A stretch of 62,792 nt of DNA, the filler included. It is 6 parts of 6 records of this genome, joined end to end, with 100 filler letters (N's around TTAATTAATTAA, not from the genome) between each part and the next. Parts side by side here need not be neighbours in the genome. Positions count along the whole stretch, not along the records: positions 25,831 to 35,983 come from SRR20825019_2890; 5 more parts are not named here. One strand, given 5' to 3'. The notes beneath the pieces are model-generated. The model saw only the letters and a list, made by a program, of their open reading frames with translations. It had not been told where the DNA came from and ran no database searches. The translations under genes and the position numbers were made by a program. This document shows positions 1,149 to 57,964 of this stretch, in pieces. The stretch's first letter is position 1; each line of letters starts with the position of its first letter.

Positions 1149-2348
1149 TTACGCTGTTTTAACTTTTAAACGTTTCATTCTCTTTTTAATATTTCCTTGC
1201 ACTACGTAATAATCTATTGTTGGTGCAAATACGTTCATCAGCAATATTGCAAGCATTACACCTTCTGGGTATGCTGGGTTGAAAACTCTGATTAAGATAG
1301 AAATAAAACCTATTAAGAAACCATAGATCCATTTTCCTCTGTTGGTTTGTGAAGCCGTTACAGGGTCTGTTGCCATATATACTGCTCCAAAAGCAAAACC
1401 ACCAATAATAAGGTGATGCCACCATGATTCACTCATTAATCCGTAGAATTTACTTCCTTCTTGAATCCAACCAGCGTTTACCACACCGTTGAAAATAAGC
1501 CCCATTGTAATTGCACCTAGTACTGATGAAAGAATAATTCTCCAGCTTCCTATTTTTGTGAAAATTAAAAACAATGCACCTATAATAATTAGAAAGGTTG
1601 AGGTTTCGCCAACTGAACCTGGAATAAAGCCCCAGAACATATCCCAAGCGCTATAAACTGGTTCTGCGTTTGCTGCGAGACTTCCTAAAATTGTTTCACC
1701 AGAAATAGCGTCAGGTTGTGTTGCCATTTCTTTTGCGCCGTGCACCCATACTTTATCACCACTCATCCACGTTGGGTATGCGAAGAATAAAAATGCGCGG
1801 ATCGTTAGTGCAGGGTTCAAAATATTCATTCCTGTACCTCCAAAAACTTCTTTTCCGATTACAACTCCGAAAATTACTGCAACAGAAAGCATCCAAAGTG
1901 GAATGTCAATTGGCACAATAAGTGGCACAAGCATTCCTGTAACCAAATATCCTTCTTCTACTTCGTGACCTTTTATTACTGCAAAAATAAATTCTACTAA
2001 AAGCCCAACTCCATATGAAACGATTACTAAGGGTAATACAGTCCAAGCACCCATAATAAAGTTATCCCACGTAAGGAAGTTACCCAATGGGTCTAAGCGT
2101 AATGTGCTATCAATAGCTGCGTAATGTTGGTAACCAGCATTAAATATTCCGAAGATTAAACATGGAACAAGCGCCATAATAACGGTGTTCATAGTTCGTT
2201 TTAAATCATCTACCACACGAACATGGCTTCCGGAATGTGTCGTTTCATTAGGTGTATACAAAAAGGTATGCAACGCATTAAATGCAGGAGCCATTTTGGT
2301 GCCTTTGTATTTTTCCTTTAGCGTATGTAAATTCTGTTTCAATCCCAT
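1149..2348 (-). CDS. nqrB: Na(+)-NQR subunit B
   Basis: KEVFGGTGMNILNPAL, DAISGET FMN site, MATDPVT; multi-TM. Confidence 0.96.
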   Translation of the reverse strand: MGLKQNLHTLKEKYKGTKMAPAFNALHTFLYTPNETTHSGSHVRVVDDLKRTMNTVIMALVPCLIFGIFNAGYQHYAAIDSTLRLDPLGNFLTWDNFIMGAWTVLPLVIVSYGVGLLVEFIFAVIKGHEVEEGYLVTGMLVPLIVPIDIPLWMLSVAVIFGVVIGKEVFGGTGMNILNPALTIRAFLFFAYPTWMSGDKVWVHGAKEMATQPDAISGETILGSLAANAEPVYSAWDMFWGFIPGSVGETSTFLIIIGALFLIFTKIGSWRIILSSVLGAITMGLIFNGVVNAGWIQEGSKFYGLMSESWWHHLIIGGFAFGAVYMATDPVTASQTNRGKWIYGFLIGFISILIRVFNPAYPEGVMLAILLMNVFAPTIDYYVVQGNIKKRMKRLKVKTA

Positions 2349-2353
2349 AGCGA

Positions 2354-3706
2354 TTATCCTATTTCTTTATACATTAAATCAAGACCATTCCTGATGATTT
2401 GTTGATGTGGTTGTTTACTAACGCAAACAAATTCGGTAAGTGCAAAATCTTCCGGAGCCACTTCATACATTCCCAAAGCTTCCATTTCGTCAAGATCTTT
2501 AACCATACATGCTTTTAGCATTTGCATTGGGTACATATCTAGCGGGAAAACTTCTTCGTAAACACCAGTTACTACAAATGCACGGTGTTCACCATTGGTA
2601 TTTGTATTAAGGTCATACTTTTTATTTGGAGAAAGCCATGAAAAAGTTAATGCTCTTGAAGTAGACATTTTATTGAAAACTGGTTTATTCCAACCAAACA
2701 ACTCATAATCGTCACCTTCAGGAATTACGGTTACCACATTATTGTAAAAACCTAAATGTCCTTTTGGAGAAATTTTTCTACCTGTAAGCACATCGCCATT
2801 AATTACACGACTGTTTTCGTCATTCAGTCCAGAATCATACAAAAATGTAGCAACTTCTGAACCAATACGTGTTCTATAATATTTAGGTGTTTTAACCTCA
2901 GAACCAGAAAGCGCAATAACTCTTTCTGCATTAAATTTTCCAGTTAAAAGTAATTCACCTATAATAACAAGGTCTTGTGGCGCGATGGTCCAAACTATCT
3001 CCCCTTTATTTACTGGGCTTATTTTATTAATCTGCGTACCTACATTTCCCGCGGGATGTGGTCCTGAAACCTCATGAGTAGAAACATCATTTAACCCACT
3101 AAAAGGAGAGTTTCCGTTTTTATCAATGCCAACATGCACTTGCCCTTTCGTAAGTTTGCTAAGTGCAGTTACTGCAGCTTGCAATTCTGTTTCTTTTCCT
3201 CTTAAAGAAAAATCAACATCATTAGCTAATGGAGCAGAACTAAATGCAGAAATAAAAATAGCTTTTGGTTCTTGTTCAGTATCCGCAATAACCGCATAAG
3301 GGCGTTGCAGGATAAATGGCCAACAACCAGACTCCAATAAACGTGCTTTTATTGCCTCAGCAGTTGCAGATTTGGGATCTAAAGATCCGAAATCTTTAAA
3401 AGCATCTTGCGAATCTGCTTCGAAAGTTATTTCTGTAATTACACGTTTTGCGCCGCGTTCAATTTTAGTGAGTGTCCCACTTACAGGTGAAACAAACTTA
3501 ACTAATTCGTTATTCTTTGAGTAGAATACGGTATCACCAGCTTGAACTTTCCCACCTTCTCTAACTACCATTTTCGGGGTAATAAGATGAAAATCTGAAG
3601 GTCTTATTGCGAAGGTTCTAGATCTCGGGGCGCTGGAAAGTGTTTTTTCTGCTTCACCCTTTAACTTAATGGTAAGACCCTTTTTAATTTTAATGTCTTT
3701 GGACAT
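2354..3706 (-). CDS. nqrA: Na(+)-NQR subunit A
   Basis: IKIKKGL N-terminus, GPHPAGNVG, EDFALTEFVCVSK C-terminus. Confidence 0.96.
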   Translation of the reverse strand: MSKDIKIKKGLTIKLKGEAEKTLSSAPRSRTFAIRPSDFHLITPKMVVREGGKVQAGDTVFYSKNNELVKFVSPVSGTLTKIERGAKRVITEITFEADSQDAFKDFGSLDPKSATAEAIKARLLESGCWPFILQRPYAVIADTEQEPKAIFISAFSSAPLANDVDFSLRGKETELQAAVTALSKLTKGQVHVGIDKNGNSPFSGLNDVSTHEVSGPHPAGNVGTQINKISPVNKGEIVWTIAPQDLVIIGELLLTGKFNAERVIALSGSEVKTPKYYRTRIGSEVATFLYDSGLNDENSRVINGDVLTGRKISPKGHLGFYNNVVTVIPEGDDYELFGWNKPVFNKMSTSRALTFSWLSPNKKYDLNTNTNGEHRAFVVTGVYEEVFPLDMYPMQMLKACMVKDLDEMEALGMYEVAPEDFALTEFVCVSKQPHQQIIRNGLDLMYKEIG

Positions 3707-25730: not shown

Positions 25731-25830
25731 NNNNNNNNNNNNNNNNNNNNNNNNNNNNNNNNNNNNNNNNNNNNTTAATTAATTAANNNNNNNNNNNNNN
25801 NNNNNNNNNNNNNNNNNNNNNNNNNNNNNN
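25731..25830. other. Artificial contig linker N44-TTAATTAATTAA-N44
   Basis: Six-frame stop spacer; identical linkers at 35984-36083, 42173-42272, 50653-50752 and 57628-57727. Confidence 0.99.
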
Positions 25831-32622: not shown

Positions 32623-34071
32623 ATGAGTTTTGATGACGTTTATGAAAAAGAACTGTCCTTTCAAACTGACCGCAGGAAAGCCTCAGTAGAATTTATTAAA
32701 ATCATTAGCGACCTTTGGTACGACAAGTCCATTGAATTGGTACTTTTCCGTAACCAACTTATCGACCGCAATGTGAGTGAAATTTTAAACCTTCACGAAT
32801 ATGCTGGCGAATTCGTACAAAAGCCTATCTCAATCTTCGATTCTGTTGAAATTGCACAGGCTATCAAAACTCTGGATCTTCCTCCAGCAAAACTAGACAT
32901 TGGTAAACTTACCTATGAGTTTCACTTGGAAGACGATAAATATTCAAACGCATTAGCATTTGTTTCAGATAAATTAAAAGAAGCTAAAGAAACCAAAAGC
33001 CTAGTACCAAAAGATGTAGTTCTTTATGGTTTTGGACGTATTGGCCGTTTGTTGGCTCGTGAACTTATGACTAGAACTGGCCAAGGAAACCAACTTCGCC
33101 TTCGTGCAATTGTAGTACGTGGAAAGATGGATCAAACCGTTTTAGACAAAAGAGCTTCCTTGCTTCAAAATGATTCTGTACACGGAGATTTTCCTGGAAC
33201 TGTTCGCACAGACCTTGAAAACAGTGCTTTAATTATTAATGGAACTACGGTTCATATTATTTCAGCAAACAATCCGGAAGAAATTGATTATACTAAATAC
33301 GGTATCGAAGATGCTTTGGTAATTGATAATACGGGTGCTTTCCGTGATGATAAAGAGTTAAGCAGACACTTAAAAGCCAAAGGTGCTTCAAAAGTATTGC
33401 TTACTGCTCCTGGAAAAGGAGTGCCAAACATCGTGCACGGTGTAAACCAAAACGAATACGACCCAAATACGGTCGATATTTTTTCTGCAGCTTCGTGTAC
33501 TACAAACGCCATCACTCCTATTCTGAAAGCTGTTGAAGATTCATTCGGTGTGGTTCGTGGACATTTGGAAACAATTCACGCATATACAAACGACCAGAAT
33601 TTGGTAGATAATATGCACAGCAAATACCGTCGTGGTCGTGCTGCAGCATTAAATATGGTAATTACAGAAACTGGCGCTGGAAGTGCTGTTGCAAAAGCAT
33701 TGCCTGTTTTGGCTGGCAAACTTACTAGCAACGCGATTCGTGTTCCGGTTCCAAACGGGTCTTTGGTAGTTTTAAATCTTGAATTTGCAACCCCAACTAC
33801 GGTAGATGGAATTAACGCTACAATGAAAAAATATGCATTGGAAGGCGATTTAGTAGAACAAATTAAATACTCTATGAGCAACGAGCTTGTTTCTAGCGAT
33901 ATTGTTGGTTCTTCTGCCCCTTCTATTTACGACAGTAATGCAACTATTGTAACTGAAGACGGTAAAAACGTAGTGCTTTATGTATGGTATGATAACGAAT
34001 ATGGCTATAGCCACCAAGTAATTCGTTTGGCAAAATACATTGCACAGGTTAGAAGGTTTACTTATTATTAG
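32623..34071 (+). CDS. gap: Glyceraldehyde-3-phosphate dehydrogenase, long form with ~130-aa N-terminal extension
   Basis: GFGRIGR, ASCTTN, HAYTNDQ, WYDNEYGYS. Confidence 0.93.
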   Translation: MSFDDVYEKELSFQTDRRKASVEFIKIISDLWYDKSIELVLFRNQLIDRNVSEILNLHEYAGEFVQKPISIFDSVEIAQAIKTLDLPPAKLDIGKLTYEFHLEDDKYSNALAFVSDKLKEAKETKSLVPKDVVLYGFGRIGRLLARELMTRTGQGNQLRLRAIVVRGKMDQTVLDKRASLLQNDSVHGDFPGTVRTDLENSALIINGTTVHIISANNPEEIDYTKYGIEDALVIDNTGAFRDDKELSRHLKAKGASKVLLTAPGKGVPNIVHGVNQNEYDPNTVDIFSAASCTTNAITPILKAVEDSFGVVRGHLETIHAYTNDQNLVDNMHSKYRRGRAAALNMVITETGAGSAVAKALPVLAGKLTSNAIRVPVPNGSLVVLNLEFATPTTVDGINATMKKYALEGDLVEQIKYSMSNELVSSDIVGSSAPSIYDSNATIVTEDGKNVVLYVWYDNEYGYSHQVIRLAKYIAQVRRFTYY

Positions 34072-34074
34072 TAG
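34045..34074 (+). repeat. Left copy of 30-bp exact direct repeat (gap 3' end)
   Basis: CAGGTTAGAAGGTTTACTTATTATTAGTAG, identical at 35736-35765. Confidence 0.97.
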
Positions 34075-34091
34075 TAACCACCTATACATAC

Positions 34092-34125
34092 AAAATCCCG
34101 CTCTGAAAATAGCGGGATTTTTTTT
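34092..34125 (+). terminator. gap intrinsic terminator
   Basis: aaaatcccgct...agcgggatttttttt. Confidence 0.88.
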
Positions 34126-34422
34126 ATTCTGTTTTGTGTATTGGTAGTGGATTTGTGTTTGAACACGGTACTTTCATTAATGCTTTTTCCGAGTTTGTTT
34201 AGAAATTTTAATCCACGAATGTTTCTCGAATAATATCTTTACATTTTTGGATTTCCGATTTAGATAGTCGGGGATATTCCTTTATTATTCTTGATTTGTC
34301 TATTGTTCGAATTTGGTCGATAGTTTTTAAACCGTGATCTCCACTTTCATCAAGAAACAAAAAATATTTCAAATTATTGTTTTTCAGTTACTTAATCATC
34401 CAAATATAACATAAAAACCCAA

Positions 34423-34782
34423 CTATTTCCGCACCACTGCCCTAAGCTCTTCTAGCTTGGCATTCGTTAACTTTGCTTCCTGCTCCAGCGCAGCAATACG
34501 CTCCTGAAACGGCAGGGTAGTGTCTGGGGCATTGGTGGTAAAATCTGCTGGCAGCTGGGCGGCGAGGTCTTTAAAAAAGTTGTGTTTTAGGGCGGTGCTT
34601 AGTTCCCAGAGTAAGGCTGTTTGCAGTGTGGGCTGTTTTAGGTAATACTCAATGGTGGAAGGTTGGCGCTCCATATAACGGGACAGCGAACTTCTATAAA
34701 CGCTATGCTTTATAATATGGTCTTTAAGCAATTTTCCCAAATGGGGCGAGGTGTTCTTTTGGAGGTATTTTGTTTTCATCAT
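34423..34782 (-). CDS. XRE-like helix-turn-helix protein with C-terminal coiled coil
   Basis: HLGKLL...SSLSRYMERQPSTIEYYL...LLWELSTALKHNFF pattern typical of Bacteroidota XRE-like proteins; ERIAALEQEAKLTNAKLEEL heptads. Confidence 0.65.
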   Translation of the reverse strand: MMKTKYLQKNTSPHLGKLLKDHIIKHSVYRSSLSRYMERQPSTIEYYLKQPTLQTALLWELSTALKHNFFKDLAAQLPADFTTNAPDTTLPFQERIAALEQEAKLTNAKLEELRAVVRK

Positions 34783-34789
34783 TATAGAA

Positions 34790-35020
34790 TTTAATTAGAC
34801 TGTTATGATATTTAATTAGACTATTATCCTGTTTTATTAGATTGGTATACTATTAAATTTAATTACGATGCTATTTTATGAGACTACGCTCCTATTTTAT
34901 TAGATTAATTTAGTATTAAATTAGAGCTATACACTATAGTATGAGACAACTATTAAATTTTAGTAGACAACTAGTTAGTTTAATTTGACTGTTATATTAT
35001 TTTATTAGACAGCTGCCTAA
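34790..35020. repeat. Array of 11 degenerate 21-bp tandem repeats, core TTTWATTAGAC
   Basis: Units start at 34790, 34811, 34832, 34853, 34874, 34895, 34916, 34937, 34958, 34979 and 35000 with no indels; stops in all six frames. Confidence 0.9.
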
Positions 35021-35024
35021 TATT

Positions 35025-35055
35025 CTAAAAAATACAGGTATTGCTACCTGTATTT
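35025..35055 (-). terminator. Intrinsic terminator of the 162-aa gene
   Basis: Minus strand AAATACAGGTA-GCAA-TACCTGTATTT followed by further T's, 8 nt after the stop. Confidence 0.85.
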
Positions 35056-35063
35056 CCTAAACC

Positions 35064-35552
35064 CTATCCCTCCATTGGTGGCGCGGGGTTTCTGCCTCCT
35101 TGCCCCGCAAAACGCACCTTAAGCCTATCAAAACTTGCCTGTGCGCCGGGTACGCCTGTGCGCGCCATAACTTCAAGCAGGCCGTAGGCTCCCGTGGCCA
35201 TGCCATAGGCTTCGTGACCCGCAAGGCGCTTTACGTCTTCAAGCCGCTGTAGCATATCCATCATACGGCTTATAATGGTTTCTACCTGTTCAAAAAGCTG
35301 AAGGTCGTTTGCCAAAAACTCCAAATTGTAGGTGGCGTTAACGGCTAGATTGGGGTTGGTGTTCATCTCGTCTAGCATCTCTTCTGCAAATACCTTGTTA
35401 TCTACACTTATAGCGTTTAGGTTACGGCGTTGCTCATCGTTAAGCGTAGCGTCTGGAAAAGCAGCGGCCGCAGTGTTTAAGGCATTCATAATTTCGGTAA
35501 CTTCCAGATCTGCAAGGGTCTGGTTTAGTAAGTTTTGGTTTGTGTTGCTCAT
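35064..35552 (-). CDS. Hypothetical all-helical protein (Bacteroidota uncharacterised family)
   Basis: Clean 162-aa ORF with own terminator; L..EQRRNL...DL..FEQ...LED...LAG.EAY..A...Y...GVPGAQ..FD.LK.RF pattern. Confidence 0.8.
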   Translation of the reverse strand: MSNTNQNLLNQTLADLEVTEIMNALNTAAAAFPDATLNDEQRRNLNAISVDNKVFAEEMLDEMNTNPNLAVNATYNLEFLANDLQLFEQVETIISRMMDMLQRLEDVKRLAGHEAYGMATGAYGLLEVMARTGVPGAQASFDRLKVRFAGQGGRNPAPPMEG

Positions 35553-35662
35553 TGGTTAAAATTTTAAGGGTTACTTTCTAACAAGGTTTATAAAAAAAAC
35601 AATAGCAAACAAGAGGGAAATCCCCCATTTTCACTGTGGTTGTTTTCCTACTTTTTTAAAAA

Positions 35663-35765
35663 GGATCTTTGGTAGTTTCAAACCTTGAATTTGCAACAAC
35701 TACATCGTGTAACTCGTTTGGCGACATATAGTGCCCAGGTTAGAAGGTTTACTTATTATTAGTAG
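35663..35765 (+). pseudogene. gap: Internally deleted relic of the gap 3' end
   Basis: 35663-35697 matches 33757-33791 (32/35); 35703-35735 matches 34012-34044 (24/33); 35736-35765 = 34045-34074 (30/30). Confidence 0.9.
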
Positions 35766-35859
35766 AAATAGCCCTTCTTATTTTATCAAAAAAATCCTGT
35801 TGCTTTAGTAACCAGATTTTTTATATTTGAACAATTAAAACTTTAACATTTCTTTAATA

Positions 35860-35983
35860 ATGTGCACCTCACAAAAATATCGGTTTTCAATTTTACTTTT
35901 TGTTTCATTTTTTATACTCACTTCTTGTTCAAAAGACGGCGATGATCCAACTACGCCAGAAGTAACGGTTACAGTTTCCACAG
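35860..35983 (+). CDS. Lipoprotein N-terminus (truncated by gap)
   Basis: MCTSQKYRFSILLFVSFFILTS-CSKDGDD lipobox with acidic export-like signal; TATATTTG promoter element upstream. Confidence 0.7.
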
Positions 35984-36084
35984 NNNNNNNNNNNNNNNNN
36001 NNNNNNNNNNNNNNNNNNNNNNNNNNNTTAATTAATTAANNNNNNNNNNNNNNNNNNNNNNNNNNNNNNNNNNNNNNNNNNNNC

Positions 36085-42172: not shown

Positions 42173-42907
42173 NNNNNNNNNNNNNNNNNNNNNNNNNNNN
42201 NNNNNNNNNNNNNNNNTTAATTAATTAANNNNNNNNNNNNNNNNNNNNNNNNNNNNNNNNNNNNNNNNNNNNGATAGCCCTTTTGAGGTTTGGTTGAAAA
42301 CGGAAGTCGTATAACAACGAAAGTCTTGAAAGCATATATTGTTGTAAAAAATTCATATTTCTTCGGATTTACCGGTTTATTGTTATTTAATGTTCAAATA
42401 ACTGTCATAAAACTGTCATGTTCGGATGGTGCCGCAGTTCTTTTTCTACGCGATAAGGTGCTTTTTGGTCTGTGGCCATCATTGAAGCGTTCGTTGCGTA
42501 TTCGCAACCTGCGGCGGCATGAGGCCGGCTGGTCGGGCGGCTCATGCATTGGATGGGTTTCGGTCCAACCGTCTCCCATGCATGTCCCGAGCCGTGTGCG
42601 ATTGATGGGGGCGTGGCTCTGCATATGCGGTCGAATTCTGCCGTATCGCAACCGGATTGTCTAAAAATATCTTTTGAATTCAATGATATAATGAAGATCA
42701 GCACAATTTTGGAAGCGTGTTTCAATTGTAGATAGAATATTGGGCGTTAGCCTCTGGCTCTGGGTTGCATACCGTTGCAGGTTCGCAACTTTCTCCGTTC
42801 AAGCGTCTTTAAATGTTAGTAGTCACTGTCAAACTTGCTTGTATTTCCACTCGCTTAATGTCATTTCCCTTATTAAGGAATCAGACTTTTAGCTTTTGGG
42901 GGATTAA

Positions 42908-50652: not shown

Positions 50653-50753
50653 NNNNNNNNNNNNNNNNNNNNNNNNNNNNNNNNNNNNNNNNNNNNTTAA
50701 TTAATTAANNNNNNNNNNNNNNNNNNNNNNNNNNNNNNNNNNNNNNNNNNNNG

Positions 50754-57627: not shown

Positions 57628-57964
57628 NNNNNNNNNNNNNNNNNNNNNNNNNNNNNNNNNNNNNNNNNNNNTTAATTAATTAANNNNNNNNNNNNNNNNN
57701 NNNNNNNNNNNNNNNNNNNNNNNNNNNCCCCCCCCCCCCCCCCCCCTCCCCCGCGGCGGCCAACCCATGATGCGGTCCGCCACGGGCGCCGAACCGTGGC
57801 GAGATCCGCGGCACAGCCAGCCGCCGGCGGCAGGCTCGGTTTGGCGTCGTTCAACAGCCATTACTCAATCTGCCGCGGTACCCGGATGGCTGTTGTTAAA
57901 GGCAAGAATAGACACTGTCTAACAACACACAAAGTGCCCTATTTTGGCACGCACATAGCTCGCT

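Follow-up and report, generated by a model that had tools for sequence, protein, structure and literature searches.

The question raised by this locus is what kind of element lies between a glyceraldehyde-3-phosphate dehydrogenase gene (gap) and a partial second copy of that gene's 3' end. The locus occupies positions 34075-35765 of the window, by which we mean the whole analysed stretch of 62,792 nt. An initial annotation had listed two co-oriented minus-strand open reading frames (ORFs) of 162 and 119 aa, a terminator, an array of 11 x 21 bp and the gap 3' duplicate. ORF calls, repeat scans and hairpin scans recovered every one of these parts. We found that the order helical protein, terminator, array of about 11 x 21/22 bp and helix-turn-helix (HTH) protein recurs in Flavobacteriaceae, Chitinophagales and other Bacteroidota. 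The sequence of the array tracks the DNA-binding half of the HTH protein and is independent of the helical protein. The unit is inserted DNA with a patchy distribution and can be present in several copies. It appears to be previously undescribed, as no description of it was found in those parts of the literature that the search covered.

Read along the minus strand from the right edge of the insert, the first gene (35064-35552, -) encodes the all-helical protein of 162 aa, which is acidic (pI 4.5, net charge -10) and belongs to an unannotated family. It is followed by a terminator at about 35025-35055 (-), a hairpin of -12.9 kcal/mol with a T-run that was missed by a simpler scanner. The array (34781-35011, -) consists of 11 direct 21-bp units with a consensus of about AGTCTAATTAAATAnCATAnn, in perfect register from 35011 down to 34781. 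The second gene (34423-34782, -) encodes a basic protein of 119 aa (pI 9.6) with a predicted XRE-fold HTH and a C-terminal coiled coil. The array had been described as ending 7 nt before the start of this gene; this is true of the conserved core of the last unit, while the unit itself runs on and overlaps the ATG. The period-21 self-match was 0.57 vs 0.35 in dinucleotide shuffles (z 11.6), and none of 200 shuffles scored as high. Tandem Repeats Finder recovered parts of the array only, and a repeat search found 10 copies at 21-bp spacing. As for gene content, both listed ORFs stand, and a 54-aa mazF-like ORF (34208-34372, -) has to be added to them.

A scan of one genome per species yielded 12 real loci, from five Aequorivita, other Flavobacteriaceae, Halomarinibacterium, Flavobacterium jejuense, a Chitinophagales metagenome-assembled genome (MAG) and a Bacteroidota MAG. 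All 12 carried a homologue of the 119-aa protein downstream on the same strand, 285-400 bp on, and in 11 of them the spacer had a period of 21 or 22 bp. Further copies from two of these genomes behaved alike. A metagenome scan added 75 loci. Pooled, with near-duplicates included, this gave 92 oriented loci with the helical gene, 22 of which end too early to be judged. The HTH gene was found downstream of the helical gene in 65 of the 70 assessable loci, and three of the other five still had a repeat array there. Among 62 distinct spacers, 55 showed a 20-23-bp periodicity unmatched by any of 200 dinucleotide shuffles; seven did not, L010 and L057 clearly so. Many contigs are short because they end inside the array, as is expected of assembly breaks. 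By the criterion that the initial annotation had set for itself, rare co-occurrence of the two genes or a lack of arrays would have refuted its reading; these counts do not refute it.

The unit is asymmetric in its terminators. Of 62 distinct loci, 58 had a terminator-like hairpin after the helical gene, whereas such a hairpin came after the HTH gene in just 11 of 52. It also differs from its surroundings in base composition. GC content averaged 50% in the helical gene, 46% in the HTH gene and 37% in the flanks, and the helical gene exceeded the flanks in 38 of 38 loci. Both genes lay ~9-12 points above the flanks in every locus, and the array, which is AT-rich, phased and curvature-prone (mean 27% GC), ~10 points below. 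The raised GC content may at most be explained by shared mobile ancestry or by amino-acid constraints.

The AlphaFold2 (AF2) model of the 119-aa protein (pLDDT 80) consists of a five-helix HTH, a short linker and a C-terminal helix of 30 residues (89-118). The five-helix, lambda-repressor-like arrangement of the model places it in the XRE-family fold. With Foldseek, the HTH domain matched ClgR, C.Esp1396I, C.AhdI and HipB with probabilities of 0.99-1.0 and a root-mean-square deviation of ~2 A over 57-67 residues, at E-values of only 0.04-0.15. No Pfam or NCBIfam family was found for the protein at E<=1, the HTH_3 and HTH_31 models included, and PDB profiles gave only E ~0.4-1.2, to P22 C2 and MBF1. 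In an alignment of 36 HTH homologues, the N-terminal half with the recognition helices was variable. The conserved parts were a LWELSxALKHNFFxDLAxQLP block and the heptad-patterned tail.

The repeat sequence likewise varied from locus to locus. At several loci each unit contained a dyad, such as AAACCA-N7-TGGTTT (L008) or CCTAT-C-ATAGG (L009), and such dyad units would fit one protein dimer per unit. One reading frame through the array of L050 (1424-1648, -) stays open, and the resulting 74-aa ORF, in which LIKFDACLILFD recurs periodically, is spurious; arrays of this sort may be taken for proteins by gene callers.

Comparing 36 distinct 21-bp arrays with their proteins showed which part of the unit the array follows. 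The helical proteins of L029 and L004 were 99% identical, with 25% identity in the HTH N-terminal half and dissimilar arrays. The same was found within one genome for L007 and L008 (helical protein 96%, N-terminal half 36%, arrays dissimilar). Conversely, L005 and L015 shared only 37% in the helical protein and 76% in the N-terminal half, with an array similarity of 0.86, and L029 and L033 shared 71% and 94%, respectively, with an array similarity of 0.98. All pairs with an N-terminal identity of at least 0.76 had an array similarity of at least 0.86. In a simple regression on array similarity, the weights were 0.63 for the N-terminal half, -0.04 for the C-terminal half and 0.11 for the helical protein. 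Such a lock-and-key relation would be expected of a cognate protein-site pair and suggests that the HTH protein may bind the array, although physical linkage between the array and the 5' half of the gene would contribute as well.

The insertion point is the 3' end of gap (32623-34071, +; 482 aa), which was identified by NCBIfam NF006139 (1.7e-208) and by Pfam Gp_dh_N and Gp_dh_C. Comparison with other gap loci, as the initial annotation had advised, showed that empty sites exist. In Aequorivita, gap is followed directly by a DUF748 gene in L025 and L026 and by three lipoprotein genes in L022 and L023. At the empty sites L022, L023 and L025 a AATCCTGTTGC...GCAACAGGATT hairpin stands directly 3' of gap. 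A different hairpin, AAAATCCCGC...GCGGGATTTT, ends gap only at the occupied sites (window, L001, L002 and L004); in the window it lies at 34092-34128 (+), with 11 pairs and a T-run. The native type (AATCCTGTTGC...) is found in the window at 35785-35824 (+), displaced together with the old gap end, and the same arrangement of native hairpin and gap-end stump on the far side of the insert was seen in L004. The insert therefore gave gap a new end region and displaced the old one. The displaced end marks the right edge of the insert in the window (35659-35768, +) and consists of two pieces: 35709-35768 is 88% identical to 34018-34077, and 35659-35697 is 90% identical to 33753-33791. As these match separated segments of gap, the copy has an internal deletion. 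The counterpart in L004 measures 47 bp at 96% identity. The target direct repeat expected of a site-specific island was thus present in the window (88-90%) and in L004, and no flanking direct repeats were found at other loci. Sliding identity along gap did not locate a crossover position, and no island-derived haplotype was seen before the stop codon.

The region flanking gap on its 3' side is variable in general. Separately from the unit, L024, from a close relative of the L004 genome, has a gap that is 92-100% identical to it over the first 1350 bp and 83% in the last window. There (1620-3000) the occupied-type gap terminator is followed by ORFs of 155 and 256 aa, which from their sequence are a putative DinB-like protein and a putative membrane protein; that genome yielded no gene for the helical protein.

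The unit is not confined to gap. A second locus is represented by the L014 copy, which lies just past a PPIase gene and is absent there in the relatives L110, L111, L112 and L115; in the distant metagenomic relative L064, the unit is convergent with gap. The helical gene was present in 21 of 57 Aequorivita species genomes and in five of 201 sampled genomes of the family, with up to five copies per genome. HTH and array copies numbered eight in G004 and five in G002, and their repeats differed within one genome. Searches of 72,556 plasmid records (PLSDB) and 50,697 phage records found no copy, and IMG/VR gave a single match of 26% identity only. Hence, the view of the initial annotation that this is a compact, horizontally acquired module of a protein, a repeat array and a DNA-binding protein gained support from the empty gap sites, the pairing of the genes and the periodic spacers. 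Its suggestion of a satellite mobilised in trans is disfavoured by the phage and plasmid results.

What lies downstream of the HTH gene differs from copy to copy. Between the window and L002, homology breaks exactly at the HTH stop codon and resumes past the gap terminator, which delimits a cargo slot. In the window this slot holds only the mazF-like ORF, the C-terminal 54 aa of a truncated PemK/MazF-like toxin gene (Pfam PF02452, 8.5e-5, profile positions 74-108 of 109; 23.2 bits vs a cut-off of 23.1). The stump is a cargo remnant, and a mazF-like remnant is also present in L001. The first ORF of at least 70 aa past the HTH gene was co-directional in 36 of 48 distinct loci; in some of the other 12 it was a flanking housekeeping gene, and in one a recombinase gene. 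Cargo differed nearly everywhere: among 47 cargo ORFs, only two locus pairs shared similar proteins.

Known or candidate defence genes were common in the cargo. With housekeeping genes and the recombinases and transposases already identified left out, 64 ORFs from 34 loci were scanned with PADLOC, which reported such genes in 10 of the 34 loci. These were a dGTPase (L007), EcoRV-type (L009), type IIG (L010) and EcoRI (L096) restriction-modification (R-M) systems, ABC-3C candidates (L018), an AriA/AbiL-like ATPase (L032), a PD-T4-6 kinase (L033), Dazbog DzbA and DzbB (L076), PDC-M34A with PDC-M60C (L089) and PD-T4-4 (L091). Pfam added DUF4062 in L002, a HEPN protein in L019 and, in L017, an HpaII R-M system beside a distant helical-protein homologue. 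The remaining loci had housekeeping neighbours or no cargo.

In six loci (L005, L010, L014, L015, L050 and L062) a tyrosine recombinase lies next to the HTH gene. The six form one family with 35-82% mutual identity and are Xer/integron-integrase-like. Only the L010 enzyme reaches a curated cut-off; against the integron-integrase model, the neighbouring recombinases score below the cut-off, and their match is split in two. In both L050 and L062, the start of the recombinase gene overlaps the stop of the HTH gene. As the initial annotation had stated, no integrase, transposase or relaxase ORF was found in 34075-35765, nor in the rest of this contig side, and the window copy accordingly has no integrase of its own, as a site-specific island would. 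Of the origins that had been suggested, the remnant of a larger island agrees best with relatives that carry variable cargo, six of them with an Xer-like recombinase, and with a window copy that retains only a truncated mazF-like gene. A 2026 paper notes defence genes around Bacteroidota tyrosine recombinases; this fits the present context, although it is no description of the unit.

We favour the reading that the unit serves a family of small integrative islands as their control region, in which the HTH protein would coat the array and gate its own gene and those downstream, and that integrase and cargo have been lost from the window copy. We put its probability just short of even. In this mechanism, the 119-aa protein would dimerise via its C-terminal coiled coil, and the dimers would bind cooperatively to the 11 phased 21-bp sites that reach its own start codon. 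Occupancy of the array would then set transcription of the HTH gene and of the terminator-less genes behind it, so that autoregulation and co-transcription of the cargo are presumed. The gated genes in relatives would be an Xer-like recombinase and/or variable, often anti-phage, cargo, and in the window only the mazF-like stump. Array and DNA-binding half would be exchanged together, like an immunity region, and several copies could therefore coexist in one genome without cross-talk. The island would have entered at the gap 3' end, brought a replacement terminator and displaced the old gap end.

The closest precedents are the immR-immA-int region of ICEBs1 and the phage CI and RstR regions. 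There, an XRE-fold repressor lies upstream of and is co-transcribed with the integrase, and it autoregulates from sites before its own gene. The DNA-binding part of the repressor and its operators swap together (heteroimmunity), in CTX-phi likewise. The unit differs in having 11 phased direct 21-bp sites rather than two to six operators, and an unrelated acidic helical partner rather than an ImmA-type protease. Its HTH protein also has a coiled-coil tail and no Pfam HTH_3 match. The C proteins of R-M systems (C.Esp1396I, C.AhdI), which were among the best Foldseek matches, gate downstream toxic genes, and R-M genes lie downstream in four relatives (L009, L010, L096 and, with the distant helical homologue, L017). 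C proteins are, however, only ~80 aa long, have no coiled coil and use two palindromic C-boxes instead of an 11-unit array. A mobile-island control region made of a repressor and a site array is a known kind of system; one of the component protein families here is entirely uncharacterised.

Several results weigh against this control-region reading. No promoter could be placed, in a search that reached 21 of 35 loci, and the Bacteroidota -7 motif was absent from the window array. To our knowledge, eleven sites far exceed those used by known XRE repressors. Intact copies without cargo are kept among housekeeping genes (L064, L106 and L108), which a mere cargo switch does not explain, and 24 of the 34 scanned loci had no known defence gene. 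HTH gene and array also persist without the helical protein (L103-L108), so that a part for the latter in any switch is unsupported. Moreover, the array and the neighbouring DNA that encodes the N-terminal half could be inherited together by physical linkage alone.

The overlap of recombinase and HTH genes in L050 and L062, together with their adjacency in L014 and L015, raises another possibility, which we consider unlikely. The array with its HTH protein would be a nucleoprotein accessory to recombination, in which the protein polymerises along the phased repeats in the way of P2 Cox and lambda Xis, or which works like the accessory sequences of Xer sites. It would give direction or selectivity to an Xer-like recombinase without an arm-binding domain; control of transcription would be secondary. 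The associated enzymes are indeed simple Xer/integron-integrase-like ones, the island is flanked by the duplicated gap end in the window and L004, and the 21-bp phasing sets all sites on one helix face. Cox and Xis are likewise small DNA-binding proteins that oligomerise on tandem direct repeats and act in both transcription and site-specific recombination. However, Cox uses 9-bp boxes at ~10.5-bp spacing inside an attP arm, whereas the array here is gene-proximal and ~600-700 bp from either island edge (~600 bp is the figure for the comparison with Cox), not at a junction. No crossover site was found beside the array, and ~90% of the loci have an intact HTH gene and array with no recombinase within the available sequence.

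Repeat geometry also recalls replication and partition. About 11 contiguous 21/22-bp direct repeats adjoin the gene of their likely binder, specificities swap as in plasmid incompatibility groups and several orthogonal copies occur per genome. The unit might on these grounds be the replication origin or a centromere-like site of an excised circle, with the units as iterons and the HTH protein as initiator or centromere binder. Iteron origins (R6K gamma with 7 x 22 bp, pSC101 and P1) have tandem 21-22-bp repeats next to the binder gene and swap specificity in the same way. In omega (pSM19035 heptads) and ParR-parC (R1, pSK41), direct repeats, 7-10 or more in a row over the protein's own promoter, are bound cooperatively by a small dimer, and helical phase is kept. 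We nevertheless regard an origin or centromere as very unlikely. The plasmid and phage records gave 0 matches and IMG/VR none of substance. The unit contains no Rep-type (winged-helix) initiator, helicase, primase or partition nucleoside triphosphatase (NTPase) gene. Omega and ParR are ribbon-helix-helix proteins of plasmids, partnered by a ParA or ParM motor, while the protein here is an XRE HTH in a chromosomal setting with no NTPase. No ParA, ParM or TubZ domain (partition types I-III) was found in either protein or as a conserved neighbour, so the partition role that the initial annotation had offered is disfavoured too. No circular or empty-site joints were seen in the contigs examined, which is weak evidence, and the short contigs end in the array as assembly breaks would. 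The oriT-only 'hitcher' islands of a 2026 preprint were also considered and set aside, as nothing connects the array with a relaxase.

Two further readings take the unit out of the control of islands altogether. If the three parts were a defence or addiction system themselves and merely resided in defence islands, the patchy, multi-copy distribution and the defence genes immediately downstream in 10 of 34 loci would follow. Yet neither protein has a PADLOC match or a recognisable effector or enzyme domain, and the unit always sits at the upstream edge of the cargo rather than scattered among it. Nor does it look like a type II toxin-antitoxin operon, given the terminator after the first gene, a spacer of ~230 bp between the genes and a 162-aa protein that matches no toxin family. 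This reading has little chance of being right. Equally improbable is a domesticated architectural element, whose bound array would act as a roadblock to transcription or replication, or as an insulator, at island borders. The cargo-less copies among housekeeping genes and the AT-rich, phased and curvature-prone array agree with it. It leaves both the linkage to one recombinase family and the co-directional, terminator-less cargo unexplained. Each of the compared systems has a defining feature that the unit lacks. The initial annotation had not recognised a named system here either.

The control-region reading can be extended to a broader proposal, which we hold to be somewhat unlikely. The HTH gene and its private 21-bp array, usually with the helical protein, would be the core of an undescribed class of mobile or semi-mobile Bacteroidota elements. 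These would be self-marking platforms with many orthogonal specificities per genome that recruit or license an Xer-type recombinase in cis or trans, and each would serve as a landing and expression pad on which defence genes collect. Such a class would be functionally parallel to the integron platform, with unrelated parts. If the control-region reading holds, the heads of defence islands in Bacteroidota would be marked by a simple signature (an acidic protein of 160 aa, then a terminator, ~11 x 21-bp repeats and the gene of a small HTH protein), and many unidentified downstream genes could be mined as candidate defence systems. The finding would also contribute naturally occurring, orthogonal pairs of a DNA-binding protein and its site array, and would show how integrase-poor Bacteroidota islands are controlled and perhaps moved.

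The helical protein is the least familiar part of the unit. Its AF2 model was all-helical (pLDDT 87), and both models agree with the folds that had been predicted from the sequence (all-helical for the 162-aa protein, HTH and coiled coil for the 119-aa protein). In Foldseek, the best E-value was 0.47 in the PDB and 0.47 in BFVD, and the VIA wide structure search gave a best Z of 5.6, to generic helical hairpins. Neither this protein nor the 119-aa protein matched a Pfam, NCBIfam, PHROGs or PADLOC family. For the helical protein, 60 further family members gave only sub-threshold chance matches in Pfam, and PDB sequence profiles nothing useful. The family, which has no annotation and no fold relative, is large, with 1594 clusters (50% identity) at E<=1e-3 and 500 at E<=1e-10. 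Its members always stand alone at ~160 aa; no fused or longer forms were found, which is weak evidence. A predicted complex of the helical and HTH proteins, computed without alignments, scored 0.00. Three identities were tried and rejected: HEPN, as the conserved R-x3-H misfits the HEPN motif; TerB, the source's name for one homologue, as fold support is absent; and metalloprotease, as HExxH is absent.

Upstream of the 162-aa gene, the window has operator-like sites at 35613-35651 (-), namely GGGGGATTTCCCTC (35613-35626), which abuts TTG, and GTAGGAAAAC (35642-35651). Relatives at least ~60% identical have two to four palindromes upstream of the helical gene, of the form CAGGAAAAAyCCTGT or GGGGGATTTCCCCC. 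They are positioned at -74, -97/-99, -121 and -143 from the ATG with a spacing of 22-24 bp, and the last abuts TTGAC; other examples are L007 9858-9919 and L015 9410-9446. The palindromes are kept across loci with differing HTH/array specificities, and at the same place, different repeated motifs are found in more distant helical-protein subfamilies. In the window, L004 and L109 the sites lie within ~30 nt of the insertion junction. The helical protein would be an accessory that is transcribed separately, with a conserved operator cluster of its own, and may modulate the switch.

Two variants of this region were observed. In L104 (~2650-3000) the helical ORF is precisely lost, and the upstream palindromes are followed by the terminator, the array and the HTH gene. 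L017 (9656-10468, -) encodes the distant helical-protein homologue (hhalign probability 96%), in which the conserved GHE motif is missing. Behind it come an unrelated 94-aa ORF and the HpaII-type R-M pair, and neither an array nor an HTH gene is present.

The window is not a single molecule. It consists of six contigs joined by N44-TTAATTAATTAA-N44 linkers (25731-25830, 35984-36083, 42173-42272, 50653-50752 and 57628-57727). Contigs 1-2 have ~36% GC and contigs 3-6 52-64%, so that more than one organism is represented. The second contig (25831-35983) carries the insert close to its right end and stops 215 bp past the gap copy. Rfam gave no match at the gathering score in 33900-35984. A 35-nt near-copy of the gap terminator (34092-34126 in the window, three mismatches) was seen on another contig from the same runs at higher depth.

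Beyond the displaced gap end, the start of a lipoprotein gene (35860-35983) is interrupted by the contig end. Some Aequorivita have three tandem lipoprotein paralogues between gap and the DUF748 gene (L022 1612-6243; L023 1615-6154) and others have none. The tandem lipoproteins are 34-45% identical to a 452-aa L004 protein with a Receptor-L-like domain, and the window contig breaks inside one of the three paralogues.

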